Shown: positions 2,215 through 20,910, counted from the first letter of the stretch. The stretch is DNA of 64,000 bases from Escherichia coli (GCF_024223415.1 NZ_CP100500.1); one strand, 5' to 3'. Numbers and translations: made by a program. Notes: generated from the sequence alone by a model not told the origin.

Positions 2215-2255
2215 AAAATTGGCGGTCATGTTTAGAGCATGACCGCCAACCGATT
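2213..2255. terminator. Bidirectional intrinsic terminator between convergent yehS and yehR
   Basis: Stem ggcggtcat/atgaccgcc (2221-2247) flanked by A-run upstream and T-rich downstream. Confidence 0.55.
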
Positions 2256-2715
2256 ATTTCACTTCTTTAAAACCAGCGGCTTTCATCACCAGTTCCATTT
2301 GCGCCATAGTGATACCTTTTTTGGCATCTTCAGCAGAAACGTTGATTCCTGAAATACCCTGCAGGGCTTTAAAATCCACTTTTTCCATATCGATAGTCAC
2401 GTTTTCCTGCGCGTAGGTATCGGTATAGGTTAATTTTTCTTCAACACCCGCGATGTTTTTGTATTTGGCGCTTAACGGCTCAAGTGTCTTGGCAGCATCT
2501 TCTTTGGTGGTTGCACCAATGGAGGCAAATTGAATTTTGGTTTCAGAAGATTGCTTAAGCACCTTGTCACCTTTGTAGACATAGGTAATGGCAATTTCAG
2601 TGCCGTTCAGATTGGCGCTGAATTTCTTCGATTCTTCTTTGTCACCGCAGCCAGCAAGAGAGAAAACCAGAACAGATGCAACAACGAGGGAAAACAGCTT
2701 ATTGAAAGCCTTCAT
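2254..2715 (-). CDS. yehR: Lipoprotein YehR
   Basis: Signal peptide with lipobox (LAGC) at N-terminus, MKAFNKLFSLVVASVLVFSLAGC. Confidence 0.8.
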   Translation of the reverse strand: MKAFNKLFSLVVASVLVFSLAGCGDKEESKKFSANLNGTEIAITYVYKGDKVLKQSSETKIQFASIGATTKEDAAKTLEPLSAKYKNIAGVEEKLTYTDTYAQENVTIDMEKVDFKALQGISGINVSAEDAKKGITMAQMELVMKAAGFKEVK

Positions 2716-2839
2716 GTAAAACTCCATTTTATTTAATCAAGGAACTGGTGACTCTCACCAGGGGCTATATAGGATATGCCTAATACCGTGGCGTGAGCAG
2801 TCCGGAACTGGAGTAGAACTCTTAGTAAAAAGCACTATT

Positions 2840-4840
2840 TCATCCTTGTTGCTGAAGCATGGGGAATAATTGTTCGCAAAGCAAAACACCGTTATTCATT
2901 GCTTCTACCCGTGCCTCGCTTTCTGTATTACGAAATTGTCCCAACACATGTGCCAGCCGATAAAAACCCACCGCGGTGAGGTCATTCGCCAGCAACTCTG
3001 CCTGACCAATAGCACTCTGTTCCTGATAGCGCCAGCCGTTATGGAGCAGTTGAATAAGTAACGCCTGGCAGCGTATCAGCAACTGATGAGCAGTAGACGG
3101 CACAGGCAAAACGCTGGCAGAAGGTAGCGGTGCCACAGGCGTAGTTTCTGCGTCCAGCGCCCAGGCACGGGTTTTTGTCATCATCACCCGTGGTTCCAGT
3201 GTCAATTGCCCTTCAACAAAACTGACAAAGCCAGAAACCAGACACACGGGGTCGTCTGTTTGTTGCAAAAGCGCCGCCATGCGTTCAACGGCATAAGGTG
3301 CGCTGGCTGAGGCTGGTAATGATAACGTCAGCACATTATCTTCCCCTTCGCCGCTAATGACCTGCGCATCCAGCGTCTGGCGGCTGCTGTCCCAACCGAG
3401 CGAAATACACTCAGCGACCGGCAGAATAAATAAGTTATCGACCTGATTAAGAGGCCGTATGCAGGCGGGGGGACGCTGGCGTAAATATTCCCGCAAAGCC
3501 ACAATGCCCGGCTGGCGTAACGGCGCGCTCAACATTTGCCAGGCATCAGGCGACAGCGGCACAACGCTGCTTAAGCGGTTGCGGGTAGCTAACAGCAGCT
3601 CGCCATCGGCACTGCGTTTTGCTGCTTGTGAAACAATTTGCCCGCCCGCCAGTGCGCCAGCCTGAAAACTAAACAGCCGACGCGTAGCTGCCGGTGAGTT
3701 TTCCTGTTCACTTCGCGGCCAACTGCGCGAAAGGTGCAAAATACTGCCGGTGTCGGGATCGGTAAACCAGATGCGTAAACCATAATGCTCAATATCCTGC
3801 CAGCAACGCATACCTAAAGACACCAGCCGCAGATGATCAAGCTTTGCTTCTCCGGCAATGCCAGAGCCAACGACCGTGCGCCACGGCACAGGAGGAACTT
3901 CACCAATACTGTCGCGCCGGGCCATCTCTTGTGCGCAATTTAATCGACTGTTTAATGCCGCAAGCTGATGTAAGCATTCTCCGGCATTATAGTGGCTGGC
4001 GCGGGCGTGGAAGGCATCAACGCTGGCGCGCAGTTGCCGTAGCGATTCACTCACCCAGCGCCAGTTGCAGGTCTCTGCCGCCTGCAATGCGCGGTTGAAT
4101 GCTGCCTCGTAATGGATGAGCGGCTGGCTGATGCCGCCAAGCCATAATGTCTGGCTTAATTGCTGAACATATTGACGACACGCGTTGCCTTCTTCGCTGG
4201 CAAACGGATCGTCAGATGATGTGACGTGTTCGCTGCGCATCTGCCAGATTAAATGGTTAAATTCTGCTTGCTGCGCTTTGGCCTCGACGAAGGCCTGTAC
4301 CGCCAGTACGACATGTTCGCAAAGTGTGCCTTCAATACAATCACAACGGGCGAAACGAATACTGCTGCGGGAATAAAAACGCACATCGCTCATCGGTAAG
4401 CGGGCAGAGGGAATTTCACCCGGCGCACAGAACAACTCAATGGTGATGCCTTTAGCGACCAGCGCCTGTGCGCGTTTGCGGGTAGCATCGGGAAGGGTAG
4501 CCAGTTCTTCCAGCCAGATTGCCGGATCCCACTCTTCTTCTTTTTCCGTAGACTGAGTGGTGGCACAAAGTCGTTGATAACTTAACACCAGCATCACGCG
4601 ATGACGGCACATACCGTTGGCCCCGCAACTGCACTGAGCCTCTTTCAGTGCCTGGCCGTTCGCCAGCTGGGTACGGACACCGTCACTGAAGGTGGCGATT
4701 AAAGCGTCGTTCTCATGGCTGATCTCCGGGACGTTGCCATTTTCCAGTTCCTTAAGACTGCGCTTAACAAAACCGGCATTGCTTAACGCCGTCAGGGCCT
4801 GCGGTGTCAGTTCTAATAATTCCGGACGTAGTGAATTCAT
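2840..4840 (-). CDS. yehQ: SWIM zinc-finger domain protein YehQ
   Basis: Long ORF; CxC...CxH SWIM-like motif (CSCGANGMCRHRVM); start placed at ATG forming ATGA overlap with yehP stop. Confidence 0.75.
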   Translation of the reverse strand: MNSLRPELLELTPQALTALSNAGFVKRSLKELENGNVPEISHENDALIATFSDGVRTQLANGQALKEAQCSCGANGMCRHRVMLVLSYQRLCATTQSTEKEEEWDPAIWLEELATLPDATRKRAQALVAKGITIELFCAPGEIPSARLPMSDVRFYSRSSIRFARCDCIEGTLCEHVVLAVQAFVEAKAQQAEFNHLIWQMRSEHVTSSDDPFASEEGNACRQYVQQLSQTLWLGGISQPLIHYEAAFNRALQAAETCNWRWVSESLRQLRASVDAFHARASHYNAGECLHQLAALNSRLNCAQEMARRDSIGEVPPVPWRTVVGSGIAGEAKLDHLRLVSLGMRCWQDIEHYGLRIWFTDPDTGSILHLSRSWPRSEQENSPAATRRLFSFQAGALAGGQIVSQAAKRSADGELLLATRNRLSSVVPLSPDAWQMLSAPLRQPGIVALREYLRQRPPACIRPLNQVDNLFILPVAECISLGWDSSRQTLDAQVISGEGEDNVLTLSLPASASAPYAVERMAALLQQTDDPVCLVSGFVSFVEGQLTLEPRVMMTKTRAWALDAETTPVAPLPSASVLPVPSTAHQLLIRCQALLIQLLHNGWRYQEQSAIGQAELLANDLTAVGFYRLAHVLGQFRNTESEARVEAMNNGVLLCEQLFPMLQQQG

Positions 4841-5973
4841 GACTGAAGATTCTCCGCAAGCCATGATGCCAGCTCGCCCGGCGTCATGGCGGCTATTTGT
4901 GCGCCGACATTAACCAGCGCCTGGGCCGTATCGCGGTCATAGCAAGGTGTTGCGGTGCTATCGAGCGCTGCCAGTCCCAGCACTTTGATGCCGCTCTGGA
5001 CACACTTTTTCACCTGATGCGTCAGTAATGATGATGAACCCCCTTCGTAAAAATCGCTCACGAGGATAATGACGCTTTTCGCTGGTTGTTCAATAAGTTG
5101 CCGACCATACTCCACGGCACTGGCGATATTGGTCCCGCCGCCCAACTGTACTTTCATTAATAACTCTACCGGATCGGCAACGTCTGCCGTGAGATCAACG
5201 ACGCTTGTGTCAAACGCCACCAGATGGGTACGAATGCCGGGTAACTGCCACAAACAGGCCGCCATCACCGCAGAGTGGATCACCGAATCGACCATCGATC
5301 CGCTTTGATCAACCAGTAAGACCAGTTGCCATTGTTCGCTTTGGCGTTTAATGCGGCTGTTAAAGCGGGGGGATTCGATATACAACTTGCCGTGTTGCGG
5401 GTGCCAGTGTTGCAGGTTGGCGCGCAGAGTACTTTTGAAATCAAAGTTTCGCGCCAGTGGAATAAATGAACGGCGACGGCGATCGCGGACACCAGAAAAA
5501 GCCTGACGAACTTCCTTTGCCAGTCGAGCCATAATTTCTTCAACAACCTGGCACACTATCCGGCGGGCGGCAGCCAGTACTTCGGGGTTCATCAGATGTT
5601 TGGTGTGCAAAACAGCGCGTAGCAGGCTTTCAGAAGGCTGCATACGTTCCAGCACGTCGAGATTCGTCACCACATCTTCAATGCCGTAGCGCAGCACGGC
5701 ATCGCTTTCCAGCCGCTCAATCACCTGCTGCGGAAACAGCGTGTGAATACTGTTGATCCACTCAGGGGTGGTGAGATTTGAGCCACCTAATCCACCGGAA
5801 CGTTCACCACGCTGGAGCCGTTCAGGATCGCGCCCATACAGCCACTCCAGCGCGTGGTCTATCTGCCGGGCGTTGTCATCCAGCCCACAAAGCGTCGTTT
5901 CTGCCGCTTCGCCAAGAATTAATCGCCAGCGTTGTAGCTCACGGGTGGTCAGAAGATCGTTCAGTTCAGACAT
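4837..5973 (-). CDS. yehP: von Willebrand factor A domain protein YehP
   Basis: VWA-like MIDAS motif (DQSGSM); start MSELNDLL chosen inside longer ORF; 8-bp overlap with yehM. Confidence 0.8.
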   Translation of the reverse strand: MSELNDLLTTRELQRWRLILGEAAETTLCGLDDNARQIDHALEWLYGRDPERLQRGERSGGLGGSNLTTPEWINSIHTLFPQQVIERLESDAVLRYGIEDVVTNLDVLERMQPSESLLRAVLHTKHLMNPEVLAAARRIVCQVVEEIMARLAKEVRQAFSGVRDRRRRSFIPLARNFDFKSTLRANLQHWHPQHGKLYIESPRFNSRIKRQSEQWQLVLLVDQSGSMVDSVIHSAVMAACLWQLPGIRTHLVAFDTSVVDLTADVADPVELLMKVQLGGGTNIASAVEYGRQLIEQPAKSVIILVSDFYEGGSSSLLTHQVKKCVQSGIKVLGLAALDSTATPCYDRDTAQALVNVGAQIAAMTPGELASWLAENLQS

Positions 5974-8245
5974 GGAAAACTCCCCAGTTTTGCAGCGATG
6001 CCAGTGCCTGCTGTTCGAGTTGTTGATGATGTGCAATGGCCTGTGGTGGACAATGCAACGGCATTTGCAGCGCCGAAACGGGAAGTTGCGCCAGTTGATA
6101 ATGCTCAAGCACCTGATGCGCCAGCGTCCCGCGTTCTCGTGGTGGTAGCCAGGCCATCGCCGCGCGTAAATCGGGCAGGGCGTTAATAAAATCGGCTTCA
6201 CTCAGTTGATTTAAATGACTGCTGAAACCAGCGATAAATGCCGGCTGACAGGCCAGTTGATGGCGGGCCAGCGCCAGCAAACCGTGCAGCGCCTCACCAG
6301 ATTGTGCCGGGGATAACTGCGCCAGCATCGTCAGCGCCGCTTCGGCACTGGCGTTGGGATGTTCCAGACGCATTAGTGCGCCAAGAGCCGCGCCGCGATC
6401 CAGCGCCGGGGCATGAATTGCCTGACTGCGTCGCTCCAGTAAGGCTACCGCCGCAGAAAGAGAAACGCCGGGTAAATTAACGCCGCTATGTAGATCGCGC
6501 AGAATATGGCAAAGCGCTTGCCAGCTATGCAGGTGAGCGTGAAACTCCTTTTCATCCGGTCTGCCGTTAGATTCACACAGCCACAGCGTGCGATCGATAG
6601 TCGCGCATAACGTCGTTTGTAATATCTGCGCGCCTTGCATACCGCTAATTTCATCCAGCCGCCATAAGGCATAAAGCACTTCCAGCGCCTGGCCCATTTC
6701 GGCAAATTGATTTTCCTGGGCGATTAATAGTGTGAGTTGCTCCAGTAATTGTTGACTGAAGGACGCCAGACCCGCTAACGCCGCCTGGCTAAGACATGTG
6801 GTGATACTGCCGATTCCGCCCGCGTCCAGCATATCGGCTTCTAATTTATTGCGTGCGGCTTCCTGGAGTGTGGCACCAAAACAGGCGGCCTCAATCAATG
6901 CCGCATGCTGGCTAAGCGGGCGGGTTAATTTCCAGCGTTCTTCACCGTTGCCTGCAAGTGTCAGTGTACTTCCCTGCTGGCGTACAATCCCAGGGATCTC
7001 CAGTATTGCCAGCCGATGTAACACCTGACTTTGCGCCAGCCCATCGGGGGTAAAGCGATTTAAGGTAAGCTCCGCCGGAAGGGAGATTGCGGTACGTTCC
7101 AGTTCGCAGGTGACATCTTTTGGCAGAGGCGGTTGTGGCGTAGAAGGGGCAAGTTTACCGAATCCGTCACCCGCTAATGTGTCTATCAACGTTAGCAGAA
7201 TCGGATCGGTATCGGGATGAATAACGCCGCGATAGCTCCACGGCAACGGCGCGTTCAGGGCTTCTTTAATCAGCGAGCCTGCTATGGCATCCAGCCAGTC
7301 AGTGCGTAACGGTAGTGTATGACCGCGCAACTGTGCCAGCGCCATCGCATGCAGATGAGCGGCAGCCATATCCGCGGTAGAAGCGGGCAATTTGTGCTGG
7401 CGCAAACGGGTAAGGATAGTTTTTAGCAGTTGTTCACCGGCCTTCTGCAAGCCCCACTGCCAGCACCAGTTTTGCCATACCGGGGCAGGCATTCCTGAAA
7501 GGTATCCTGCCAGCACATCAAGGCGCTTTTCACTGTAGGGTGTGAGATAACAACCTGTAACGGCATCTGCCAGCGAGGGCAATTCTGGCTTGTTAATTTT
7601 CTGAGGGCATTCGCGCCACATCTTTGCCAGTGCCGGAGCGTGCCAGCCACCGCAGACAACTAACACGTCGCCATTATTTTGCTGCATCGCCCATCCAATC
7701 CAGCGGGCCATAAAGGCTTCGCGCTGACGATTGAGCGCATCGCCGGAGGCGTCGCCCCGCAGTTGGGCAAAATAGTGCGCCAGCGCAGAGGGTAATGCAG
7801 TTTGCTGGCTTTCATCTTCGAACAAGTGATCCCACAGGGTATCGCTGTTATCCATGCGGGTGGCACGCAGCAGTAAGGCCTGGCTTTCATCTTGCGTATC
7901 AGGCGAATCGTCCTCTTCTTCACTCTGCGCCCAGCAAGGCAAATCGATGAAGTAAGTTTGTGCCTGAATGCGACGTGCGGCTTGTAGCGCCTGCCACTCC
8001 GGCGAAAATTCAGCAAATGGCGTCCAGGCACCACGCCCGGGGGCTGCACCGTCCTGATACTGGCAATAACTGTAAATAGCTACCGGAAGCTGGTGGGCTA
8101 AAAACAGTTCGTCTACCCGGTCATTAAAATCAGCCGGGCCTTCAATCAACACGTATCGTGGCCGCTGGCTTTCGATTAACGATTTCACCAGCCGGGCGCA
8201 GGCCGGACTATGATGCCGGATGCCGACAATTAACGGCTCGCTCAT
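5966..8245 (-). CDS. yehM: Large uncharacterised protein YehM
   Basis: 760-aa ORF beginning MSEPLIVGIRHHSPACARL; conserved position between MoxR ATPase and VWA genes. Confidence 0.8.
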   Translation of the reverse strand: MSEPLIVGIRHHSPACARLVKSLIESQRPRYVLIEGPADFNDRVDELFLAHQLPVAIYSYCQYQDGAAPGRGAWTPFAEFSPEWQALQAARRIQAQTYFIDLPCWAQSEEEDDSPDTQDESQALLLRATRMDNSDTLWDHLFEDESQQTALPSALAHYFAQLRGDASGDALNRQREAFMARWIGWAMQQNNGDVLVVCGGWHAPALAKMWRECPQKINKPELPSLADAVTGCYLTPYSEKRLDVLAGYLSGMPAPVWQNWCWQWGLQKAGEQLLKTILTRLRQHKLPASTADMAAAHLHAMALAQLRGHTLPLRTDWLDAIAGSLIKEALNAPLPWSYRGVIHPDTDPILLTLIDTLAGDGFGKLAPSTPQPPLPKDVTCELERTAISLPAELTLNRFTPDGLAQSQVLHRLAILEIPGIVRQQGSTLTLAGNGEERWKLTRPLSQHAALIEAACFGATLQEAARNKLEADMLDAGGIGSITTCLSQAALAGLASFSQQLLEQLTLLIAQENQFAEMGQALEVLYALWRLDEISGMQGAQILQTTLCATIDRTLWLCESNGRPDEKEFHAHLHSWQALCHILRDLHSGVNLPGVSLSAAVALLERRSQAIHAPALDRGAALGALMRLEHPNASAEAALTMLAQLSPAQSGEALHGLLALARHQLACQPAFIAGFSSHLNQLSEADFINALPDLRAAMAWLPPRERGTLAHQVLEHYQLAQLPVSALQMPLHCPPQAIAHHQQLEQQALASLQNWGVFHV

Positions 8246-8255
8246 GCATCTTTCC

Positions 8256-9344
8256 TCACGGCAGGCGGTGGCGGGCTTGATAATAAGCCTGCCAGTGAGC
8301 TTCTTTATGTGTGGCGACACGCTGTTCGAAGTAACGGCGCAGACGCGCGCGATCTTCTTCGTTATCTTTGACGATGGTTCCGGCAATACATTCCACCAGG
8401 TCGGCAGGCTCCCCCGCGCGATTCGCTAAAAACCAGGCGCGGACGCCCACAGCATGGGCCACGTTCACGGCTTCAGCGGTGGACATAATCGCTGTCAGTG
8501 TATCCATTGACGTTTTCTTTTCGCCGTTGGCACGCAGATCGCGGAAGGTGCGGACCAGTAATTCCAGTACCGCGTCAGGCACTTTATGCGGAATACCGCT
8601 ATGGGCCAGCAAACGCGCCGAAGCACTGGCGACCAGTTCCAACTCCTGGGCGAAATCCATAATCGGAAAAACCGTTTCAAAATCGAAGCGACGCTTTAGC
8701 GCAGCACTCATTTCATTGACGCCGCGATCGCGGGTATTGGCAGTGGCAATAATATTAAAGCCTTCTCGCGCATAGAGCTGACTGGCTTCACCAGTGAGTT
8801 CCGGCACCGTCATCACCCTGTCAGAAAGCATACCTAACAGACAGTCCTGCACTTCCAGCGGTGTACGCGTTATCTCTTCGAAACGGACGATTTTGCCGTC
8901 GCGCATTCCCTGATAAAGCGGGGCAGGGACCAGCGCTTCCGTTGACGGACCATGATTGATAAGCAAGGCGTAGTTCCAGCCATACTTGATTTGATCTTCG
9001 GTGGTAGATGCCCCGCCCTGGATGGTTAACCCGGCATCGCCGCTAATAGCGGTTGCCAGTAATTCAGAAAGAAGAGATTTTGCGGTACCCGGTTCCCCCA
9101 CCAACATCAAACCGCGGCCGGTAGCAAGAGTGACTAACATACGTTCGACAGCGGAGGGGCTAATCACCACTTTACGGCTGATATTTTGCGCTTCGTCGCC
9201 AAGGATAAAAGCACGGGCCGCAGGCAAACTTAACTGCCAACCGGGCGGGCAAGGTGCGTTATCATTTTGTTTTAATTTTGCCAGTTCATCGGCGTATAAC
9301 ACAGCAGCAGGCGGACGCTGCAGATGATTATTCTGCGGTGACAT
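8256..9344 (-). CDS. yehL: MoxR-family AAA+ ATPase YehL
   Basis: Walker A GEPGTAKS and AAA+ core seen in translation; start MSPQNNHLQRPP. Confidence 0.85.
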   Translation of the reverse strand: MSPQNNHLQRPPAAVLYADELAKLKQNDNAPCPPGWQLSLPAARAFILGDEAQNISRKVVISPSAVERMLVTLATGRGLMLVGEPGTAKSLLSELLATAISGDAGLTIQGGASTTEDQIKYGWNYALLINHGPSTEALVPAPLYQGMRDGKIVRFEEITRTPLEVQDCLLGMLSDRVMTVPELTGEASQLYAREGFNIIATANTRDRGVNEMSAALKRRFDFETVFPIMDFAQELELVASASARLLAHSGIPHKVPDAVLELLVRTFRDLRANGEKKTSMDTLTAIMSTAEAVNVAHAVGVRAWFLANRAGEPADLVECIAGTIVKDNEEDRARLRRYFEQRVATHKEAHWQAYYQARHRLP

Positions 9345-9454
9345 ATATTCATCCCTGAAATGTATTAATGAAATAAACGATATTTTACGCGCAATAAATG
9401 TTTGGCGCATTAGTTGTTTGAGCGAAAAATATCTGGAAAGCAGATCACAGTAAA

Positions 9455-9490
9455 TAAAAAAACCTGCTGGTGAGGCAGGTTCTTTTATTT
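9455..9490 (-). terminator. Intrinsic terminator downstream of yehK (minus strand)
   Basis: Hairpin aacctgctgg/ccagcaggtt with flanking A/T runs. Confidence 0.5.
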
Positions 9491-9650
9491 ACTATTTTCA
9501 GGCCTAACACCACAGCCTGTGCAACATCGTGTTCCAACGAACGAATTATAACCACGGCTGGACCCCGTTGCAATTAAGATAATGAGATTTATAATCCAGG
9601 CCATTGGGACGTTGCGCCGGATCGGACCAATTTGAATTATTTAGAGTATA

Positions 9651-9968
9651 TTATTCTATTTCTTGGTTGAATATATTCTGTAGTTCACGATTAAAAATTG
9701 CTATTACAGTTTCAGGTGATTCACCTCGTAATTTCCGCTCATCAATACACTCATCTCTTATATAAATCAACGCATCATTTATTAGCGGGTCAGCATCTTC
9801 TCGATCACGTTGATGAAATGTTGGACGTAGCCGGAATCGCTCCAGTCGATAGACGGAACCTGTAAATAATTCAGAGCATTTATGGATCTCAAGTCTGAAG
9901 GAAAACGGATCTTCAGGTACAGGGACCTCATAATCGTAAATAGCAACCAGCTCTTTTTGCACGATCAT
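9651..9968 (-). CDS. yehK: Small uncharacterised protein YehK
   Basis: 105-aa ORF in conserved position between yehL and yehI. Confidence 0.7.
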   Translation of the reverse strand: MIVQKELVAIYDYEVPVPEDPFSFRLEIHKCSELFTGSVYRLERFRLRPTFHQRDREDADPLINDALIYIRDECIDERKLRGESPETVIAIFNRELQNIFNQEIE

Positions 9969-10028
9969 CGCTTTCCCCGCTGGTAAGTCGTGTTGATAAC
10001 GGGCAGTTGCATCACTGCCCGCTGTGTT

Positions 10029-13000
10029 TTAATGGAAAATGACGTCAGGTGCGCTTAACGCCTCACTCAAATCAAACACATCAAGTTCGGCAAAGGTGAC
10101 GGATTTATTGTCACGGTACACTCGAAGAGAACGGAAGCTCATTAGCGCTTTGCTATCAACATTGTAGTGGTTAAAACCGGGTGAAAACTTAAGGACCAGC
10201 CGGTACTCACCCAGGTTATAGACAAATGCGTCCTCATAGCCTGACTCCCAGCCTTTGTATCGCATTCCCATAAGTTGCCCAACGGTAGCGGATTTACCTT
10301 CCCAGCGAGTCAGGCTGTTACTGGTTGACTCGTCAGGTGTGAGCAGCACCGTGCGGCGCGACAACTGGCGAAAAGGCGGCATAATTTCGTAATCGGCAAA
10401 AAGCTGTGCAAATTCACTGCGCATTTCTGCTGTCATTTCTAACGGGTGGGCAATGCCAATCAGAGCGTCCGCAGGCAGGTCAATTGGCTCATCTTGCGCA
10501 TTGCAGAACTCCCCCTCTGCGGCCACACGAAAGGCTTTGAGTAAACAACGCGGTTCATTTGCCGGATAAACCCCCCATATTAATCGCTGGGTAACCAGAC
10601 GGGTAAAGGGATGATTAACAAACAGAGAATGAAAATCTGCCAGCGACCAGCGTCGGGTGGTACGTAGGGCCGTTTCAAGACGCGGGAGCAGGTTTTTGCT
10701 CACCTGAGTAGCATCTTTTTTTAGCCCTTTTAGTCGGGCCAGTGCCTCGGGCGCTTTCAGTTGATCGTCATCGGCGCGCAAACGGGGAACGCTTTTCTGG
10801 CGAACGTTTTGCTGATCAAAGATAACCGGGTTGAGATTTTCATCGAAGCGAACGGTAAACTGCCGGGGACCAAAATCAAAACTCAACGCCTGCGGATCAT
10901 CAAGGCCCAGGGTTGGGACTAATCTGTCCGCTAGCTCTTCCTGGCTTAGCCCGCGATTTTCTGCGACCACCTGAAGAAATTCCGCCGCGTTATCACGTAA
11001 GGGGCGGGATTTAGCCCGTTGCGATATATGATGCAGCTGTATCAGCGCCATATCATTATTCATCAGGGTAAGGATGTTCAGGCCGCTGACAGCACGGGCA
11101 GATTTGCCTTCTTGTGGCCAGGCGAGGATCTGTGTCGTCAGATCCCGTGCCGTGCTTTCGTCACCAAAGAGACTTAACGCCAGAAATGCCCAGTTGTCTT
11201 TTGCGGGGGCACCAGCTTGTTGCCACGCAGTGAAGAGATCCCAAGCAAAAGCTGCCAGCGTTTGTGGCTGGCAGAACGTTTTCAGTTGTTCCAGCCCGCT
11301 ATAAAAACGTCCCCCCTGGGTAAAGCGCAGCATTTCGCCGATAATTTCCAGAGCGTCATTGGTAACAGTTTGATTATTAGTGATAAGGCGCGGCCTGGAC
11401 CACATTTGCGGATGCCAGAAATCAGGGGCTTTTGGAATGCGTGCCGGGTAAATGTCCATTGGACCCTGTTTAAGCAACTGCTCCAGGGCAGACCATACAT
11501 CTGTACGCTGCCAGCGGTTTGCCACGGTTTGTAGCAATTCGCCATGTCCCTGTTCGTACAGTAAACGCAGGGCAAGTAATGCGGCTTCGCTATTATCGCT
11601 GGGTTTGGTAAAGACAAGAGGGATAAGTGCACTAGCCGTATGTTCCGGCCATTGTAAAATCCACTGGCGAGCCAGATCACGCTGCGCCGCGAAACGTCGC
11701 CAGACGTGGGCAACAGGCAGCGCCAGTTCTGTTGCGCCAAAATTTAAAATTAACGGAAATGTTTCTTTTGGACGATGTGAAAAAGCCAACAGCAGACCTG
11801 GTAGCGCATCCAATCCGAGGATACTGAGAAAATAGTCCTCACCCGCGAACAGATGCTTTTTCTCATTGATACGCAGCCAGAAGGTCAAAGCCATCTCACG
11901 CGGCAACTGTGCCAATAAATACAGGTTCCAGACACTCTTTTCCGGACGATAATGTGAGTAGTTGTCATTTTCCCATATGTTAATTAACGCTTCTATGTGA
12001 CCGCTGCGGAGCGCCTGTTCTGCTAATTGTGCTTCCGGGGAGTTCCAGCCATTCAGGATCTCTTCAACCCGCCCCTGGTAGTAATGCCACTGAACAAAGA
12101 GTGAATTGCGTGCAGCATCCAGTTTTCCGGGGAGTATATAATTCAGAAACAGCCATACATCATCCCCAAAACCCAGTTCCTGTAATACAACTCGTCCACT
12201 TTTTTGTTCCATGCGTTGCGCAAGAGATTCCGTGCTGAAATAACGGGCAGGCTCAGTGGCGGCAAGCCTCTCTTGTTCGCCTGGTTGCCAGTAAACTTGC
12301 GGAGTTAATTCGAGCGGTGCCAAATCAAGACGTGGAGCTGTCATTTTTTTCTTACTACGCCACGGTGGTGAAACGAGGATTTCTGGCAGATTGCTGTTAT
12401 CGGTGCCATCAATAACCGGTTTGGGCGGTGCCGATAAATAACTCTTCAGCACTGACTGGGGTTGAGTACTTAACCACGGCATCACTTCTGCTGCCAGTTG
12501 TGGCTGCGATGCCATCAGCGTTTGTAACAGCGCACGCCAGTATTCATCGCGTGCTTTTTGCTGTGCAGGCAGCTTTTTGTCTTCGATGATTGGATAACCA
12601 GGGCGGGCTGGTGGTTCTGTTAACGCCAGCAGTTCTGCCAGTGCGGCGAGCGTCGCATGGGGGAAGTTTTTATGGTATTTAGCTACACGTTGCAGGCTGG
12701 GTTTGTTTTTATCAGCCACCAGTAGCAAGGTGCGGATGACTTGCGGATGGTTAATTTGTACCAGCAGACTGCCGCAATCTTCTTTATGGGCATACATCGC
12801 GAGGCGCGGAATGGCTGCCAGTCCTTGTTCGCGCAAAAGGGCGGCGCAGGCCGCGTAGCCGAAGTGGTTTTCATGCGACATGTAGCTGGCTTCTCGATCG
12901 CTAAATATATCCTGGCTCCAGTAGTGTTCGAGTTTTCTCACCGCTGTGGGGTCATTAGCAACAACTTTTAACCACTCCTTAGAATGAAAATGAGTTCGCG

Positions 13001-13661
13001 GGCATTCAAGGCCTACCAACTCATTGGCTATTTCTGGTTTTTCCGGGAGGATCAGCGCAATAAAAGGGCGGCGAACTTTGGTTATTCCTGGTAGTGCGGC
13101 AATGAGTTTGTCGGCGCAACGCTGCCAGCAGCTTTCCTCTGCCAGAGAGAGATGCTTACGCAGTCGGAGATCGAATTCGTTATAGGTTTCTGAGCGATAA
13201 CCATAGCCATAATCCTCGTCCTGATACTGCAATGTCACTACCAGAGGATCACTCTCATAACACCGCGCAATAAACTGGCGTGCAATCACCACCTCAGTCG
13301 CATATTCCAGCCCCTCTTGTTGGACGATTTCGTCGAGCAACTGTTGGCTGTCATTTTGCGCGATACAGGCTAGCGCCGCCATTGTCCGGTCCGGGATTGA
13401 GGGTTTGTGTTCGCCGATCAAGTTGATGGCCTGCGTGATGGCGGACTGCCACTCCAGTGAAAAATTCTCATAACGCCAGACAATGTTTTTTTTCTTCTCA
13501 GCTTTTTGTAGCAATTCATCACCCAATGTCTGGATGAGACTTCCAGTGATAACGGACACTGGTTCGCCCGGCCAGCGACGATGACTGAGCGGCGTTTTGC
13601 CTTTTTTATATTTCAGTTCCAGTTGGGCGTTATCCGCCAGCCACGGTAATTCCTTGTCCAT
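10029..13661 (-). CDS. yehI: DUF4132-family large protein YehI
   Basis: 1210-aa ORF; shares multiple long motifs with the adjacent molR paralog (e.g. RLRKHLSL.EES.WQ.CA.KLIAA.P, DFGPRQFTV.FDE, QLFADYE..PPFRQ). Confidence 0.85.
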   Translation of the reverse strand: MDKELPWLADNAQLELKYKKGKTPLSHRRWPGEPVSVITGSLIQTLGDELLQKAEKKKNIVWRYENFSLEWQSAITQAINLIGEHKPSIPDRTMAALACIAQNDSQQLLDEIVQQEGLEYATEVVIARQFIARCYESDPLVVTLQYQDEDYGYGYRSETYNEFDLRLRKHLSLAEESCWQRCADKLIAALPGITKVRRPFIALILPEKPEIANELVGLECPRTHFHSKEWLKVVANDPTAVRKLEHYWSQDIFSDREASYMSHENHFGYAACAALLREQGLAAIPRLAMYAHKEDCGSLLVQINHPQVIRTLLLVADKNKPSLQRVAKYHKNFPHATLAALAELLALTEPPARPGYPIIEDKKLPAQQKARDEYWRALLQTLMASQPQLAAEVMPWLSTQPQSVLKSYLSAPPKPVIDGTDNSNLPEILVSPPWRSKKKMTAPRLDLAPLELTPQVYWQPGEQERLAATEPARYFSTESLAQRMEQKSGRVVLQELGFGDDVWLFLNYILPGKLDAARNSLFVQWHYYQGRVEEILNGWNSPEAQLAEQALRSGHIEALINIWENDNYSHYRPEKSVWNLYLLAQLPREMALTFWLRINEKKHLFAGEDYFLSILGLDALPGLLLAFSHRPKETFPLILNFGATELALPVAHVWRRFAAQRDLARQWILQWPEHTASALIPLVFTKPSDNSEAALLALRLLYEQGHGELLQTVANRWQRTDVWSALEQLLKQGPMDIYPARIPKAPDFWHPQMWSRPRLITNNQTVTNDALEIIGEMLRFTQGGRFYSGLEQLKTFCQPQTLAAFAWDLFTAWQQAGAPAKDNWAFLALSLFGDESTARDLTTQILAWPQEGKSARAVSGLNILTLMNNDMALIQLHHISQRAKSRPLRDNAAEFLQVVAENRGLSQEELADRLVPTLGLDDPQALSFDFGPRQFTVRFDENLNPVIFDQQNVRQKSVPRLRADDDQLKAPEALARLKGLKKDATQVSKNLLPRLETALRTTRRWSLADFHSLFVNHPFTRLVTQRLIWGVYPANEPRCLLKAFRVAAEGEFCNAQDEPIDLPADALIGIAHPLEMTAEMRSEFAQLFADYEIMPPFRQLSRRTVLLTPDESTSNSLTRWEGKSATVGQLMGMRYKGWESGYEDAFVYNLGEYRLVLKFSPGFNHYNVDSKALMSFRSLRVYRDNKSVTFAELDVFDLSEALSAPDVIFH

Positions 13662-13670: not shown

Positions 13671-16600
13671 TTATTCAAACAGGGCTTCAATATCGTTAAT
13701 TAGCTCGCTGGCGGTGATGGCATCGATTACGGAGAACTGCGCTTCCTGTGTTGAATTACTCCCCCAGCCATATCTTTCTGCTTTGCCTTCCCATAGCCAC
13801 AGCTTGCTTAAGAGCTGCTCAGCGCTGAGTTCGGCTGGCGACATGCCTACCGCAAAGCCTTCATCGATTTCCATGATTAACGACCAGCGACCCAAAGGTT
13901 TGATCATCCATCCGATCCAGCCTCCATCCTGTGGTTCGCCCTTTATCCAGCCTTTATTCGCCAGCCCCATGACCCGACCACTCGGGCATTTTCTGCCTGC
14001 CCAGCGGGTCAGTTCACTGGCATTGCGCTCGGCTTCTGTCAGGGCGTAGCTGTTACGGTCGATCTGGCGGAACGGTGGTAGCAGTTCGTAGTCGGCAAAA
14101 AGCTGACCAAAGGCGGCAGCATCCGTTGGTGATATTTCCAGAACGTGAGGAGTGCCGATAGAGATATCGCCTTCCGGCAGGGTGAAAAGATCATCGTCAG
14201 CGGTGCTGGAGCTGTTATCTTCTGCTACGCGAAAGCAAGCCAGTAGCTGGTTTTCGGCGCTATAAACGCCCCAAATCAGACGGCGGGTTAAGTGACGAAC
14301 CAGCGGATGCTCAACCAGGAAGAGCTGGAAGTTTTCCAGCGACCAGCGGCGGCGCAGGCACATGGCGGATTCCAGCCTTGCTACCTGCTGGGCGGCGATG
14401 GTACGCGCATCTTTTTTCAGCAATTTGTAGCGGTTAACCGCATCGTTCGCCCGCGTTTCATCATCGCTTTTGTTCGGTTTGGGCAGGTCTTTCAGGCGGC
14501 TGCCGGAAACATCACGCACAAACGGTTTTAAGGTTTCATCAAAGCTGACGGTGAACTGCCGTGGGCCAAAATCCAGCAGCAGCGAACCGTTATCATCCAG
14601 ACCGAGATCCGGTGCTAACCGATCTTCAAGCTCCGCCACCGTGAGTTCGCGGCTCTCGGCAATGTCGGCAATTTTTTCTTTTGCCCGCTCCTGTAATGCT
14701 TTGAATTTCAGTTTCTGGGCGATGCCGTTAAGCTGCATAAGGGCGATATCACTACCGATAGCAGCGAGAATATCCAACCCAACGGTGGCGCGTTTATGCT
14801 GGGATTCACCAGGCCAGGCGCGTATTAATGGCGTCAGTTTGCGGGCGGTGTCATCGTTACCGAGAACGCCTAACGCAGTGAACGCCCAACTCTCTTTCGA
14901 CGGCGCGCCAGCGGTCTGCCAGGCGGTAAACAGATCCCAGGCAAATCCCGCCAGTGAGTCGGCGGAACAGACGTCTTTCACCTGCAATAATCCCGGATAC
15001 AGAGCCTCTTCCTGAGGGAAGCGGAGCATTTCACCGAGGTGGAGGAGGGCGCTATCTGGCAGTGATTGGGCATTTGCTTTTAATACCGGGCGCGTCCAGA
15101 GCGATGGCTGATAAAAGGCCGGAAGAGTGGGGATTTTTGTCGGGTGATTATCTAAGGGATCGAGCGCAAGCAGAGCGTTCACCGCATCGGTTACTTCCGG
15201 CTGGTTATAACGTCGGGCGATTTCTTGCAGTAATGGCTGATGACCGTTTTCGGTAAGCATACGCAAGGCAGCGCGGGCGTTATCCTGGGCTTCACCGGCT
15301 TTGCCGAGCGCCGCAGGCAGCAGGCCGGTAAGGGCATGTTCCGGGTATTTCAACAGCCAGCTACGGGCGTTTTCGCGTAGCGTTTTCAGTTTGTTGAAGG
15401 CACGGGCGACGGCAGGAGCCAGCTCACTCGCTGCGAAGTAATTCGTGATGGGCAAGGCTTCTTGTGGATAGCGTGCAAGTGAGTTTACTAACCCAGGTAA
15501 CCCTTTGAGTCCAAAATGTAACATGGAGTATTCGGTATCGGTATGTGGAGATAGGGTAAGGGCATTCCATGCTTTTACTGCTTTCTCCAGCGGCAATGTT
15601 GTCAAAATCCCCAACTGCCAATAATGCCCGGTAGGTGAATGAAACACCTTAAATTCACTTAGTAAGGTTGAATAATCTTCATTTAGCCATGCCTCAACTA
15701 CCGCTTCGGGAGCTTTAATATATGTACCAGCGATCCGTCGTTGAAAACCCATCCTTGCCAACAGGTTGGTAGTACTTTCTTCATGGCTAACCGTGATGTG
15801 TTTTGAATACCAGATATATTTCGCCAAAAGTTGATTACTGATTTCTTCTGTCAGATAACAGATTGGCTCAATGCCTAATGGCGCTAAATCCAGCACCGGA
15901 ATCGGCGATTTTTTCTTTTTCGAAAGCCAGGGAGGGGAGACTACTACGGCTGGCAGTAGATCGGCGCTGGCATGGTTTGAGGGCTGTGTCAGTTGTTGCT
16001 GGCATGATTTCAGTACGGCAACTGCGGGTGTCGAGAGCCAGGGAATGACCTGTTCTGCCAGTGCTGGTTGTGAGATAAGCATTGTCATTAGCATAATGCG
16101 CCAACTGTTCTCTTCTTTTTGCCCAAGAAGTTCCGTCAGTGCCGCCATTGCTGCATGTGGGAACGCAGCAATGGCTTTCGTCATCCGATCGTGACAGCGT
16201 TTAGTTTGCCCGGCTACACGTATAAGCAGTGTCAATGCGAACGGATGATTGATATGACGCAACACATCGGCGCAGTAGTCACTTGCGGCATAGGGAGCAA
16301 ATCGGGGCAGGGCTGCAACACCTTGCTCCTGTAATACGGTGGCTGACCATATCGCACCACAATAGTAATCATCAAAAATGGCATATGGTTCGTGATATTT
16401 TTCTAATGAGGCAAGAATGTGCTCATCAGTCGCCACTATTTTTAACCACTCAAGCGAGGGTAATTTTTTTTGCCCCAGTAGACGCTGGGCAATTTCATGT
16501 GCAATTTCTGGTTTTTCGGGTAATAACAAAGCAATTAATGGTTGCCGCCATTCTGGAATATGTGGAATTGCTGCAATAAGTTTTTGTGCACATTTTTGCC

Positions 16601-17465
16601 AGAGAGACTCTTCCGTCAGTGATAAATGTTTACGTAGGCGTAATTCAAATCTGGAATATTGCTCCAAGTAGCTAGGTGCAATGCCAGACGGCAGAATAAT
16701 AATGACATTATTCGCATAATCCCATTCAATATCAATCTGTTGAAGGTGTGTTATTACATCAGTAGCATATTCCAGACCGCCTTCCTGGACGATCTGATCC
16801 ATAACATCCTCACGCACTTTATATCTTGTGCATTTCATTTCAAGTGCCGTGAGTACAGCCATTACTGGTGATGGTAACTGTGTTGTTTTCAGGCCGTCGA
16901 TCTGACTGATCGCCTGGGCGACGGTGTTTTGCCATTCTAAAGAACAGGCGCTGAAGTCAAATGTGGCTGTTTTATTATCCCGTTGCGACACACTACAGGC
17001 TAAGCGACGTAATTGGGTCAATTTGTCTGCTTGCTGAACAGGAACTCCGGGAAAGCGGCGATGACTTAACGTGGTGTGTACAACTTCGGGCGGAAAAACG
17101 ACAGCAATATCTTTCGCCAGCCACGGTAAAACAGCATCTGTATTTTTGTCAGGCGCACGGGTTTCTGCTACGAAAGAGGGTTGTTCCTGAATAATGGTGG
17201 ATAAGTCCGCTACCTTGAGAGAGCCCGTTACCGTTTGGGAAGGTTGCAAAGAATTATCCTTCGCTTGCTCCACATACCCCTTCTTCACCTTCTCCGCAAT
17301 CAGCTTAAGTTCCGCTTTTTCCGCTGCCGCAGCATCTGAAAAACTTTTTATCTGACTTTGCCCTTTGGTGCCAACTTTTCCCCAACTGATATGCAACTCG
17401 TTTCCCTGTTGCTCCACCGCCCAGAATTTATGTGATTTTTCGTCCTGATAGATAAAGTGTCTCAT
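13671..17465 (-). CDS. molR: MolR/YehH-family large protein with N-terminal WGR domain, intact
   Basis: 1264-aa uninterrupted ORF; N-terminus HKFWAVEQQGNELHISWGKVGTKGQ is WGR-like; paralogous to yehI. Confidence 0.8.
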   Translation of the reverse strand: MRHFIYQDEKSHKFWAVEQQGNELHISWGKVGTKGQSQIKSFSDAAAAEKAELKLIAEKVKKGYVEQAKDNSLQPSQTVTGSLKVADLSTIIQEQPSFVAETRAPDKNTDAVLPWLAKDIAVVFPPEVVHTTLSHRRFPGVPVQQADKLTQLRRLACSVSQRDNKTATFDFSACSLEWQNTVAQAISQIDGLKTTQLPSPVMAVLTALEMKCTRYKVREDVMDQIVQEGGLEYATDVITHLQQIDIEWDYANNVIIILPSGIAPSYLEQYSRFELRLRKHLSLTEESLWQKCAQKLIAAIPHIPEWRQPLIALLLPEKPEIAHEIAQRLLGQKKLPSLEWLKIVATDEHILASLEKYHEPYAIFDDYYCGAIWSATVLQEQGVAALPRFAPYAASDYCADVLRHINHPFALTLLIRVAGQTKRCHDRMTKAIAAFPHAAMAALTELLGQKEENSWRIMLMTMLISQPALAEQVIPWLSTPAVAVLKSCQQQLTQPSNHASADLLPAVVVSPPWLSKKKKSPIPVLDLAPLGIEPICYLTEEISNQLLAKYIWYSKHITVSHEESTTNLLARMGFQRRIAGTYIKAPEAVVEAWLNEDYSTLLSEFKVFHSPTGHYWQLGILTTLPLEKAVKAWNALTLSPHTDTEYSMLHFGLKGLPGLVNSLARYPQEALPITNYFAASELAPAVARAFNKLKTLRENARSWLLKYPEHALTGLLPAALGKAGEAQDNARAALRMLTENGHQPLLQEIARRYNQPEVTDAVNALLALDPLDNHPTKIPTLPAFYQPSLWTRPVLKANAQSLPDSALLHLGEMLRFPQEEALYPGLLQVKDVCSADSLAGFAWDLFTAWQTAGAPSKESWAFTALGVLGNDDTARKLTPLIRAWPGESQHKRATVGLDILAAIGSDIALMQLNGIAQKLKFKALQERAKEKIADIAESRELTVAELEDRLAPDLGLDDNGSLLLDFGPRQFTVSFDETLKPFVRDVSGSRLKDLPKPNKSDDETRANDAVNRYKLLKKDARTIAAQQVARLESAMCLRRRWSLENFQLFLVEHPLVRHLTRRLIWGVYSAENQLLACFRVAEDNSSSTADDDLFTLPEGDISIGTPHVLEISPTDAAAFGQLFADYELLPPFRQIDRNSYALTEAERNASELTRWAGRKCPSGRVMGLANKGWIKGEPQDGGWIGWMIKPLGRWSLIMEIDEGFAVGMSPAELSAEQLLSKLWLWEGKAERYGWGSNSTQEAQFSVIDAITASELINDIEALFE

Positions 17466-17564
17466 TCTGCATCCCTGTAATTTTATCCAGTTGAATGCAG
17501 ATGCTACCAGTATTTATGCGGGTTAGAGAGAGACAAAATCGCAAGAAAACAACTTTAGGAATTT

Positions 17565-17597: not shown

Positions 17598-17605
17598 AAG
17601 GGGGA

Positions 17606-20880: not shown

Positions 20881-20910
20881 CGCCTATTAACCATTCTGGT
20901 TATTCTTCAT

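Follow-up and report, generated by a model that had tools for sequence, protein, structure and literature searches.

A conserved yehLMPQ-DUF4132 gene module of Escherichia coli as a candidate MoxR-VWA remodelling switch

Described MoxR-VWA systems and the yeh locus

Most characterised pairs of a MoxR-type AAA+ ATPase and a VWA protein mature metal centres (Kaur 2020, PMC7159879; PMC3893208). In carboxidotrophs, CoxD-CoxE are an AAA_5/MoxR ATPase and a VWA_CoxE protein with a MIDAS motif, encoded by adjacent genes. Besides the yeh genes, E. coli has one other MoxR-VWA pair, RavA-ViaA, which is encoded in one operon and has a proposed chaperone-like remodelling role (PMC3893208); its known partners are Nuo, LdcI and fumarate reductase. 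The "ternary" conflict systems of Kaur, Burroughs, Iyer and Aravind (2020; PMC7159879), common in actinomycetes and myxobacteria, add large extra components to a MoxR and vWA core. Their proposed origin is CoxD-CoxE, and one class shares with the yeh module the CoxE-type N-terminal helical domain; that paper does not mention the yeh genes. The class I chelatases CobNST and BchHID join very large partners (>100 kDa) to an AAA+ motor and a VWA/MIDAS subunit. In Midasin/Rea1, a eukaryotic ribosome assembly factor, an AAA_5 motor works with a MIDAS, which takes hold of a client by an acidic residue so that the client is stripped from a complex.

The yeh module has the same type of ATPase and VWA protein as CoxD-CoxE. 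However, neither CO dehydrogenase nor any other Mo/Cu enzyme is encoded nearby, and the DUF5682, SWIM and WGR-DUF4132 partners in the module have no counterpart in the cox cluster. The CoxD/CoxE-type linkage to a matured metalloenzyme is missing, in that no conserved enzyme gene flanks the module. RavA belongs to a different MoxR subfamily, and RavA-ViaA is a two-gene system without hydrolase-like, SWIM or WGR components. Compared with the conflict systems, the TIKI-fold/HEAT protein YehM, the SWIM protein YehQ and the WGR-DUF4132 proteins replace VMAP, iSTAND and the propeller. By Pfam, the E. coli yeh proteins contain neither a VMAP, iSTAND or β-propeller third component nor a fused vWA; the vWA-effector fusion of the conflict systems recurs only in relatives that fuse YehM to YehP, and the E. 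coli YehP is unfused. The chelatases are echoed by a weak match of YehP to the NCBIfam putative cobaltochelatase model, but the module has no CobN/BchH homology or nearby tetrapyrrole genes, and it has SWIM and WGR domains. Midasin is the closest solved sequence relative of the YehL AAA module, and the proposed yeh logic of a motor plus a client-gripping MIDAS is the same. The yeh motor and MIDAS are separate small proteins, though, and a link to ribosome assembly finds no support here.

The yehLMPQ cluster and its four proteins

The window is a 64,000-nucleotide stretch of the E. coli chromosome (GCF_024223415.1, NZ_CP100500.1). A 7.8-kb query across the region matched 5425 of the 5426 complete E. 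coli genomes, with at least 80% of the query covered in 5202 of them. RefSeq genes placed in window coordinates cover 2840-9344 on the minus strand exactly and make up the yehL-yehM-yehP-yehQ operon, which is the identity that a first-pass annotation had given to this span. That annotation had also called the cluster functionally uncharacterised. A search of the full-text literature, with subscription-only papers outside its scope, agreed: it gave no published function for yehLMPQ, and regulation alone is known. These are known genes whose biology is unexplained.

YehL (8256..9344, minus strand; 362 aa) is a MoxR-type AAA+ ATPase and the named type of one of the seven MoxR subfamilies (PMC3893208). 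It matches Pfam AAA_5 (E=1.6e-34), and its closest solved sequences are the Midasin AAA modules (E=7e-10) and the MoxR structure 2r44. The AAA_5/MoxR module has Walker A and B motifs, sensor 1 and an arginine finger. The Walker A GEPGTAKS, the Walker B RFEE (E156, E157), N203 and R218/R219 are about 90% conserved among 92 aligned sequences. The Walker B motif reads E-E instead of D-E. The operon also supplies a VWA gene, yehP, two genes downstream of yehL.

YehP (4837..5973, minus strand; 378 aa) is a CoxE-type VWA protein (Pfam VWA_CoxE, E=2.3e-72) with an intact MIDAS motif of the DxSxS...T...D type. The motif residues, D222-Q-S224-G-S226, T281 and D307, are each 86 to 90% conserved in an alignment that includes some non-orthologues. 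YehQ (2840..4840, minus strand; 666 aa) is a SWIM zinc-finger protein that matches Pfam SWIM above the cutoff (E=1.6e-7). Its first SWIM motif, C70-x-C72...C78-x-H80, follows the CxCxnCxH pattern and is invariant in 51 of 51 sequences; a second CxC...CxH, from residue 166, is retained in about 55%. The C-terminal ~450 aa of YehQ have no assigned domain, and sequence and profile searches found no PDB relative of the protein. Pfam thus agrees with the MoxR AAA+, VWA and SWIM domains claimed in the first reading of the sequence.

YehM (5966..8245, minus strand; 759 aa) had been described as a large unknown protein. Its family is indeed DUF5682 (Pfam, E=2.4e-98), but it is not featureless, because a TIKI/TraB-fold domain is predicted. 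The predicted layout is an N-terminal TIKI/TraB/ChaN-fold domain (approximately residues 1 to 250), a small mixed domain and a HEAT/ARM-like α-solenoid. The core of the N-domain is a predicted parallel β-sheet with flanking helices, as in the superfamily fold, and its best structural and weak sequence matches are to ChaN. ChaN binds haem and is not itself an enzyme. Among the 53 YehM-family sequences tested, no Tiki-clan Pfam match rose above the gathering score; sub-threshold matches were to PF04187 (20 of 53, best E=0.002), PF01963 (3) and PF05139 (1).

Residues H11, H12, C16, E35, H51 and H202 of YehM are invariant. The invariant GxRHH, LIEGP and GGxH motifs stand directly after strands E5-9, E31-37 and E194-199 of the predicted sheet. 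TIKI-family proteins have a His-Glu pair inside a 2His/2Glu motif (PMC6254334), and three of these four positions can be assigned in the YehM sequence (H11/H12, E35 and H202). These residues follow three predicted strands, as in active TIKI-family hydrolases, and the N-domain looks like a hidden TIKI/TraB-type hydrolase. Unlike described members of the TIKI/TraB/PrgY/GumN/ChaN/erythromycin-esterase superfamily (the RRSP endopeptidase, Tiki1, EreB and ChaN), the YehM domain sits within a solenoid protein coupled to AAA+ and VWA proteins, and all its sequence matches fall below family thresholds. In other lineages, DUF5682-VWA_CoxE fusion genes occur in the canonical AAA_5...SWIM context on two independent contigs. 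The databases hold many truncated YehM and DUF4132 variants.

Conservation of the module and the upstream DUF4132 genes

The four genes had been reported to have overlapping or near-abutting starts and stops, and the sequence bears this out. The yehL stop and the yehM ATG are separated by 10 nt that contain GAGGAAA; yehM and yehP overlap by 8 nt (ATGTCTGA), and yehP and yehQ by 4 nt (ATGA). In 80 related loci of other genera, the P/Q overlap of 4 nt was found in 62 of 75 loci, an M/P overlap of 4 nt in 53 of 77 (1 nt in 11 more), and an L/M spacing of -20 to +15 nt in 76 of 80. The survey took the nearest in-frame start codon, so the gaps are biased to be small, but an exact overlap of 4 nt in the correct frame is unlikely to arise by chance despite this bias. 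Since the junction spacing recurs in these loci, the packing is tighter than chance would give. The retained ATGA overlap also supports the yehQ start at 4840. The junctions that had been taken as evidence of "co-translation" are therefore real and conserved, and the correct term is translational coupling.

The conserved unit has five components, a (WGR-)DUF4132 protein followed by L, M, P and Q. The one-strand order DUF4132-L-M-P-Q is fixed in about 74 of 81 loci from Gamma- and Betaproteobacteria, Myxococcota and Actinomycetota, and yehL is linked to yehP in about 76 of 81. The first-pass annotation had placed the neighbouring DUF4132 proteins in the module, and this held: in about 69 of 81 loci, spread over three phyla, their genes come immediately upstream in the same orientation. 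No further conserved neighbouring gene family was found flanking the module in 38 to 80 diverse loci. Abundant in Actinomycetota and Myxococcota, the module is patchy inside Enterobacterales and essentially missing from phages. There are one to five tandem DUF4132 genes per locus, and they evolve faster than the other module genes; where there is one, it almost always carries WGR.

Comparison with E. whittamii gave dN/dS values of 0.03 to 0.09 for yehL, yehM, yehP and yehQ (0.028 for yehL and 0.039 for yehP) and 0.16 to 0.23 for yehI and yehH (0.23 for yehH). The values against Klebsiella are likewise low. Therefore, yehL, yehM, yehP and yehQ are under strong purifying selection, and all five families are under purifying selection.

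The conserved module canonically begins with yehH (molR; 13671..17465, minus strand), an intact 1264-aa open reading frame in the window. YehH combines WGR (E=1.7e-18) and DUF4132 (E=6.9e-50) by Pfam, and residues 760 to 1264 have a pLDDT of 92 in the AF2 model. In K-12, strain ECCHD184 and others, yehH is a pseudogene or interrupted (annotation; PMC3950696). After a 9-nt gap from the yehH stop follows yehI (10029..13661, minus strand; 1210 aa), a DUF4132 paralogue without WGR (E=2e-47). YehI departs from the family at positions that are 86 to 93% conserved, where H1022 is replaced by L, E1048 by A and D1049 by E. A sensor or client role for DUF4132 is a guess, because we found no recognisable solved relative of its α/β domain.

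The yehK-yehL intergenic region (9345..9650, minus strand) separates the yehHIK unit from yehLMPQ. It contains an orphan Orz-type sRNA gene (Rfam RF02083, 9531-9456, 99.9 bits), a promoter-like site (9573-9545) and a terminator hairpin (9481-9461). "Intergenic" H-NS binding has been reported near yehL/yehM, and both genes are silenced by H-NS (PMC3686432). The upstream gene molR is activated by BglJ-RcsB (PMC3950696).

A LexA (SOS) box, AACTGGATAAAATTACAGGG (17473..17492, minus strand), ends 8 nt before the yehH ATG and scores 13/20 against the consensus. A published list of LexA genes includes molR (yehH) as one whose SOS box is known (PMC6590174), and yehH was the only gene for which we found a LexA box in the promoter region: there is none upstream of yehL, and the CTGT-N8-ACAG form occurs nowhere in the window. 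Among related loci, LexA-like boxes were confined to Escherichia, apart from weak examples in Erwinia, Intestinirhabdus and one Variovorax, so SOS control is not a conserved property of the module. Deinococcus responds to mitomycin C by inducing, via IrrE/DdrO, both a DUF4132 protein (DRA0166) and a WGR protein (DR2173) (PMC8533742).

A proposed remodelling switch and its alternatives

We suggest, with a probability of roughly one in three (about 35%), that yehLMPQ together with yehH and yehI encode one multi-subunit, ATP-driven MoxR-VWA remodelling switch. The fixed gene order, the coupled junctions, the purifying selection, the intact AAA+ and MIDAS motifs and the YehM-VWA fusions argue for a single machine. 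Our best guess at its nature, held with low confidence, is a stress- or DNA-damage-linked switch that gates the putative YehM hydrolase. By analogy with CoxD/CoxE, RavA/ViaA and CbbQ/CbbO, a YehL hexamer would dock on YehP, and the YehP MIDAS ion may then grip YehM or a DUF4132 protein by an acidic residue. The complex would be remodelled as ATP is hydrolysed, which would turn the putative YehM hydrolase on or off; its most likely activity would be that of a site-specific endopeptidase. Recognition of nucleic acid or of a partner may fall to WGR in YehH and to the SWIM finger in YehQ. In E. coli, SOS (LexA) would drive the sensor/client genes yehH-yehI, and H-NS would silence the motor operon; we therefore propose that assembly of the machine may be confined to cells with DNA damage or envelope stress. 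However, the lack of a LexA box at yehLMPQ and the terminator and sRNA gene between yehHIK and yehLMPQ in E. coli count against this switch. It is further weakened by the narrow spread of LexA-like boxes, the guessed role of DUF4132, the assignment of only three of four motif positions in YehM, the top match of YehM to a non-enzyme, and the yehH pseudogene in K-12 and other strains.

A further scenario is a DNA-damage-response machine, on which the domain content, the yehH LexA box and the Deinococcus response through IrrE/DdrO, with its induced DUF4132 and WGR proteins, have a bearing. In this scenario, which we consider quite improbable, WGR (a PARP-type reader of DNA breaks) and the SWIM finger would recruit an AAA+/MIDAS extractor and a putative TIKI-fold protease to damaged DNA, where they would remove or cleave stuck proteins. 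Such a machine would be a bacterial analogue of eukaryotic p97-SPRTN/Wss1 DNA-protein crosslink repair; it presupposes that WGR/SWIM bind DNA and that YehM is a protease. The precedent of the characterised pairs would fit a maturation chaperone that inserts a metal or cofactor, in the style of CoxD/CoxE, NorQ/NorD, CobS/CobT/CobN or BchI/BchD/BchH. The ChaN-like domain of YehM would hold a metal or tetrapyrrole, and YehL and YehP would supply the power to insert it into a client; the large HEAT-like proteins would carry substrate, and the old molR name, "molybdate metabolism regulator", would be a distant echo. The CoxE-type VWA domain of YehP with its weak cobaltochelatase match, and the best match of the YehM N-domain to haem-binding ChaN, are consistent with this, and the invariant YehM His, Cys and Glu residues could be metal ligands. 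However, metalloenzyme, tetrapyrrole and molybdenum-cofactor genes are not conserved beside the module in 38 to 80 diverse loci, SWIM and WGR domains are unexpected in a chelatase, and patchy distribution in Enterobacterales with H-NS silencing ill befits a housekeeping factor. The Deinococcus molybdate genes do not respond jointly with the DUF4132 and WGR genes (PMC8533742). We regard maturation as rather unlikely.

We are also doubtful of an anti-phage or anti-mobile-element conflict system with a logic akin to that of the ternary systems, in which DUF4132/WGR would sense an invader, MoxR-VWA would set a threshold, and the putative YehM hydrolase would act as the effector, arresting or killing the cell. 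The CoxD-CoxE ancestry proposed for the conflict systems, the CoxE-type helical domain in one class of them, the lineages that fuse the VWA protein to the putative effector YehM as conflict systems do, the multi-copy, faster-evolving DUF4132 genes, and the abundance in Actinomycetota and Myxococcota would all suit it. H-NS silencing suggests a horizontal origin, on an Iodobacter MOBP plasmid the module has a type I R-M system, IS elements and an integrase as neighbours, and an Azoarcus MAG has toxin-antitoxin modules inserted within the operon. Yet neither the seven yehH-yehQ products (YehH, I, K, L, M, P and Q) nor the neighbouring YehR matched any of the 5027 models of PADLOC-DB 2.0 at E<=0.01, and only 4 of 150 flanking genes at 38 diverse loci match defence models, the neighbours being ordinary metabolic and regulatory genes. 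The position in E. coli is near-universal and fixed, unlike that of typical variable defence islands, and phages essentially lack the module. Pfam detected no VMAP/iSTAND third component, and bpMoxR scored 18.4 bits against a cutoff of 27. Far less credible still is a decaying, silenced relic without current function in E. coli, whose packing reflects ancestry only. The broken yehH of K-12 and ECCHD184, the truncated YehM and DUF4132 variants, H-NS silencing, a resistance transposon within the DUF4132 region of a successful ST131 lineage (PMC9334617) and deletion of the operon in the reduced-genome strain DGF-298 would be in keeping with decay. Against it stand the low dN/dS values from both comparisons, the retention of at least 80% of the region in those 5202 genomes, and catalytic motifs that are intact.

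Gene order and domains of yehLMPQ

Window positions 2200-10000 were 100% identical to several complete E. coli genomes by genome comparison. The region was found in 5425 of 5426 complete E. coli genomes and was at least 80% covered in 5202. RefSeq annotation of an identical strain, converted to window coordinates, places yehL at 8256-9344, yehM at 5966-8245, yehP at 4837-5973, and yehQ at 2840-4840, all on the minus strand, in exact agreement with the span of 2840-9344 in the first-pass annotation. The near-abutting or overlapping junctions described there were also present when the sequence was read directly: the yehL stop and the yehM ATG are spaced by 10 nt with GAGGAAA inside, yehM and yehP overlap by 8 nt (ATGTCTGA), and yehP and yehQ overlap by 4 nt (ATGA). 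Pfam assigned AAA_5 to YehL (E=1.6e-34), DUF5682 to YehM (E=2.4e-98), VWA_CoxE to YehP (E=2.3e-72), and SWIM to YehQ (E=1.6e-7), confirming the earlier calls of MoxR AAA+, VWA, and SWIM domains. By Pfam, the upstream gene products are a DUF4132 protein (YehI) and a WGR plus DUF4132 protein (YehH). A 2012 paper by de Souza and Aravind is said possibly to discuss bacterial WGR contexts.

YehL is an intact AAA+ motor, with Walker A (GEPGTAKS), the acidic pair of Walker B (RFEE), sensor-1 N203, and R218/R219 all kept. Its nearest solved sequence relatives are Midasin/Rea1 AAA modules and a MoxR protein. K-12 has only two MoxR ATPases, one of them YehL, and MoxR subfamilies are reportedly discussed by Snider and Houry in 2006. 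Among the seven MoxR subfamilies is a "YehL subfamily," for which YehL serves as the type (PMC3893208). YehP is an intact MIDAS adaptor with a complete and conserved motif (D222xS224xS226, T281, and D307). By every sequence criterion tested, YehL and YehP are members of the MoxR and CoxE-type VWA families. In YehQ, the first SWIM finger (C70, C72, C78, and H80) is invariant in 51/51 sequences, and a second CxC...CxH is retained in about 55%; sequence and profile searches found no recognisable relative of the remaining ~450 residues. Such searches gave no relative of solved structure for YehM, YehQ, YehI, YehP, or the C-terminal region of DUF4132.

The N-domain of YehM carries three invariant elements. 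G8-x-R10-H11-H12 directly follows the strand at residues 5-9, E35 (LIEGP) ends the strand at 31-37, and G199-G200-x-H202 follows the strand at 194-199. Proteins of the TIKI superfamily, among which ChaN, HopBA1, and the Ere-family protein Bcr135 are named, have a parallel-sheet core and a catalytic His-Glu pair inside a 2His/2Glu motif (PMC6254334). The invariant residues of YehM fit this pattern, and three of the four positions of the motif could be assigned. The Pfam families of ChaN, TraB, and erythromycin esterase are Tiki-related, and we took the matched Ere-like chains 2rad and 2qgm to belong with the TIKI proteins. Sub-threshold Pfam matches of YehM N-domains were to PF04187 (ChaN/Tiki) in 20/53, TraB (PF01963) in 3/53, and erythromycin esterase (PF05139) in 1/53. 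Based on the residue pattern and these matches, we place the N-domain of YehM within the TIKI superfamily at fold level, as a TIKI-fold domain with an invariant His/Glu/His set. This domain is likely to have enzymatic activity, although one position of the 2His/2Glu motif is unassigned and ChaN, a member of the superfamily, is itself a binding protein.

A five-family unit across bacteria

A pattern derived from a 71-sequence YehM alignment, run against a single genome for each GTDB species, detected YehM relatives encoded in at least 554 species. The best 80 loci of that scan, retained with 10-kb flanks, came from Enterobacterales, Burkholderiales, Xanthomonadales, Myxococcota, and many Actinomycetota; because they are the closest to E. 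coli YehM, distant variants, such as the second system in GCA_022841245.1, are under-sampled. Profile HMMs trimmed to the E. coli proteins were then mapped on six-frame ORFs of 81 loci. With L, M, P, Q, and I standing for homologues of yehL, yehM, yehP, yehQ, and the DUF4132 gene, the order L-M-P-Q on a single strand was found in about 74 of the 81. The exceptions are three truncated contigs and two L-M-P loci in which no Q could be detected. In about 69 loci, L-M-P-Q is immediately preceded, on the same strand, by between one and five DUF4132 genes; DUF4132 is downstream in one locus and divergent in two. Where the DUF4132 gene is alone in its locus, an N-terminal WGR is almost always present.

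The junctions are conserved as well. P and Q overlap by 4 nt in 62/75 loci, M and P overlap by 4 nt in 53/77 and by 1 nt in 11 more, the L/M spacing is between -20 and +15 nt in 76/80, and I and L overlap by 4 nt in 21/69. The dN/dS values against E. whittamii were 0.028 for yehL, 0.039 for yehP, 0.087 for yehM, 0.085 for yehQ, 0.156 for yehI, and 0.234 for yehH. Therefore, the conserved order, the overlaps, and the dN/dS values identify yehLMPQ as a selected, translationally coupled operon. The first-pass annotation had proposed a conserved coupled cluster with DUF4132 neighbours in the same module, and both parts of that proposal hold across these loci. The natural extent of the unit is five families rather than four, and its five genes are established as co-inherited, coupled, and selected.

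DUF5682 and VWA_CoxE occur as a single polypeptide in three 50%-identity clusters, and on two independent contigs the fusion stands in the canonical context of AAA_5, fusion, and SWIM. These established M-P fusions are Rosetta-stone evidence for physical cooperation between YehM and YehP. No sixth conserved partner or client family was found in the flanks by blastp clustering of 2527 flanking ORFs and Pfam searches of 150 neighbours. The largest clusters covered at most 12 loci and were all within-genus synteny or spurious high-GC ORFs, and the 150 neighbour genes fell into 125 different Pfam families. A profile search for DUF4132 domain fusions returned only DUF4132 with or without WGR, mostly as fragments.

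Several loci depart from the common layout. In an Azoarcus MAG, BrnT/BrnA and HigB/HigA-like type II toxin-antitoxin pairs (Pfam E values of 1e-27, 4e-18, 2e-17, and 3e-13) lie between the yehM and yehP homologues at 4295-5630 of the locus, and in Chitinibacter the same junction holds an unrelated 346-aa ORF without a Pfam match. A 77-kb mobilisable MOBP plasmid of Iodobacter fluviatilis (pl1, NZ_CP025783.1) carries a complete module of two DUF4132 genes, AAA, DUF5682, VWA, and SWIM, the last apparently split in two. The neighbours of this module are an integrase, several IS elements, and a type I restriction-modification system that includes a PDDEXK nuclease. In GCA_022841245.1, the first set has DUF5682 and VWA fused, and a second tandem AAA_5/DUF5682/VWA_CoxE set follows at 14598-21543 of the locus. 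Ahead of the second set, DUF4132 is replaced by a 501-aa unknown protein and a 580-aa HEAT_2 protein, which suggests that the large helical partner of the module is exchangeable.

SOS control, proposed mechanism, and alternatives

A LexA box (AACTGGATAAAATTACAGGG, 17473-17492, minus strand) lies between the metG terminator (17596-17573) and the start codon of yehH (molR), stops 8 nt short of that codon, and overlaps the ribosome-binding region. This agrees with a published list of LexA-regulated genes, in which molR appears as having a known SOS box (PMC6590174). The molR promoter is also activated by BglJ-RcsB (PMC3950696). In Deinococcus radiodurans, the DUF4132 protein DRA0166 and the WGR protein DR2173 are induced by mitomycin C via IrrE/DdrO (PMC8533742). 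We scanned 440 nt at the first module gene start and 340 nt around yehL in the 81 loci for CTG-N10-CAG (at least 12/20 to consensus) and GAAC-N4-GTTC. A good box was found in Escherichia only, so SOS control as a general property of the module was rejected; weak LexA-like boxes occurred in Erwinia, Intestinirhabdus, and one Variovorax. There is no LexA box upstream of yehLMPQ itself; in E. coli, an AT-rich spacer of 306 bp that includes a terminator lies between it and yehH-yehI-yehK.

Functional statements on the module derive from sequence, predicted structure, and context. By analogy with CoxD/E, RavA/ViaA, CbbQ/O, NorQ/D, and Rea1, a YehL hexamer would bind YehP. As in other MoxR-VWA remodelling pairs, the MIDAS ion of YehP may grip a partner by one of its acidic side chains, and this partner would be remodelled through ATP hydrolysis. 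We suggest that the partner may be an assembly of YehM, YehQ, and DUF4132 and that the output may be gating of the putative YehM hydrolase. In this scenario, WGR and SWIM would give recognition of nucleic acids or partners, and in E. coli the WGR-DUF4132 subunits would be supplied by SOS induction. Of the models considered this one has the best support, and we give it as a whole a probability of about 0.35.

A chaperone for cofactor insertion would account for the CoxE type of the YehP VWA domain, the ChaN similarity of YehM, and its possible metal ligands. However, the flanks hold no client enzyme gene and the module includes SWIM and WGR, making this role unlikely. An anti-phage conflict system is about equally improbable. 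It would follow the logic of the ternary systems of Kaur et al., and the multi-copy, fast-evolving DUF4132 genes, the plasmid copy beside a restriction-modification system, and the toxin-antitoxin insertions in the operon point to it. So does H-NS silencing: H-NS binds in the yehK-yehL spacer, and yehL and yehM are raised in hns/stpA mutants (PMC3686432). However, the eight proteins comprising the seven yehH-yehQ products and YehR gave zero PADLOC matches, and PADLOC matched 4/150 neighbours; a defence-island context was therefore rejected. The fixed, near-universal position in E. coli and one weak match in 50,697 phage records also argue against a conflict system. The dN/dS values contradict a decaying relic, a reading we consider very improbable.

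The putative remodelling system lies outside cox, RavA/ViaA, chelatases, and the described ternary conflict systems, because the defining partners of each are absent from the yeh module. No described system with this accessory set (TIKI-fold/HEAT, SWIM, and WGR-DUF4132 proteins) was found in the full-text literature, subscription-only papers being outside its scope. That literature gave no mention of DUF5682, and the four papers in it that mention DUF4132 are not functional studies. Within the same scope, the earlier description of the cluster as functionally uncharacterised stands, as does its view that the sequence is not novel: the genes are long known, so there is no sequence discovery here. 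New here are the five-family extent, the cross-phylum conservation, and the hydrolase-type fold in YehM. The yeh genes are near-universal in E. coli and have been sequenced for about 30 years, still without a function. This "y-gene cluster" now has three concrete experimental handles, namely a five-component cross-phylum unit, a YehM hydrolase-type fold with invariant catalytic-like residues, and a partner that is a textbook SOS gene. A functional SOS link would supply a mechanism for molR, a classical member of the LexA regulon, and would define a new type of AAA+-gated protease.

The yehK-yehL spacer and yehH in E. coli

A putative Orz-type sRNA gene lies within the yehK-yehL spacer (9345-9650). 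It matches RF02083, the family of OrzO-P type I antitoxin sRNAs, over the full length (9456-9531, minus strand) at 99.9 bits versus a gathering score of 60 (E=6e-16). A sigma-70-like promoter (TTGCAA-17-TATAAT, 9573-9545) is just upstream, and a terminator hairpin (9481-9461) lies at the 3' end. The spacer contains no 29-aa ZorO-like toxin ORF. It is 100% identical to that of K-12 MG1655, a strain for which zor-orz has been reported as "not found" (0.3 kb versus 1.2 kb in O157:H7). The RF02083 element looks like an orphan antitoxin sRNA gene remaining after toxin loss. The adjacent yehK (9651-9968, minus strand; 105 aa) is preceded by a hairpin at 10000-10021 and had no match in Pfam, NCBIfam, or PADLOC. 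Among the 80 related loci, yehK is limited to Escherichia, and yehR to Escherichia and Klebsiella. Together, yehK and the zor-orz remnant are a lineage-specific insertion between the DUF4132 genes and yehL.

The yehH gene (molR; 13671-17465, minus strand) is an intact ORF of 1264 aa in this window; across E. coli, the gene seems to have been inactivated repeatedly. K-12 has a disrupted copy, and in strain ECCHD184, whose sequence matches the window at 100% identity over 2200-10000, the annotation gives a pseudogene carrying an internal stop. Truncated DUF4132 variants are numerous in databases, and a blaCTX-M-15 transposon lies in the yehH/DUF4132 region of an ST131 sublineage (PMC9334617).
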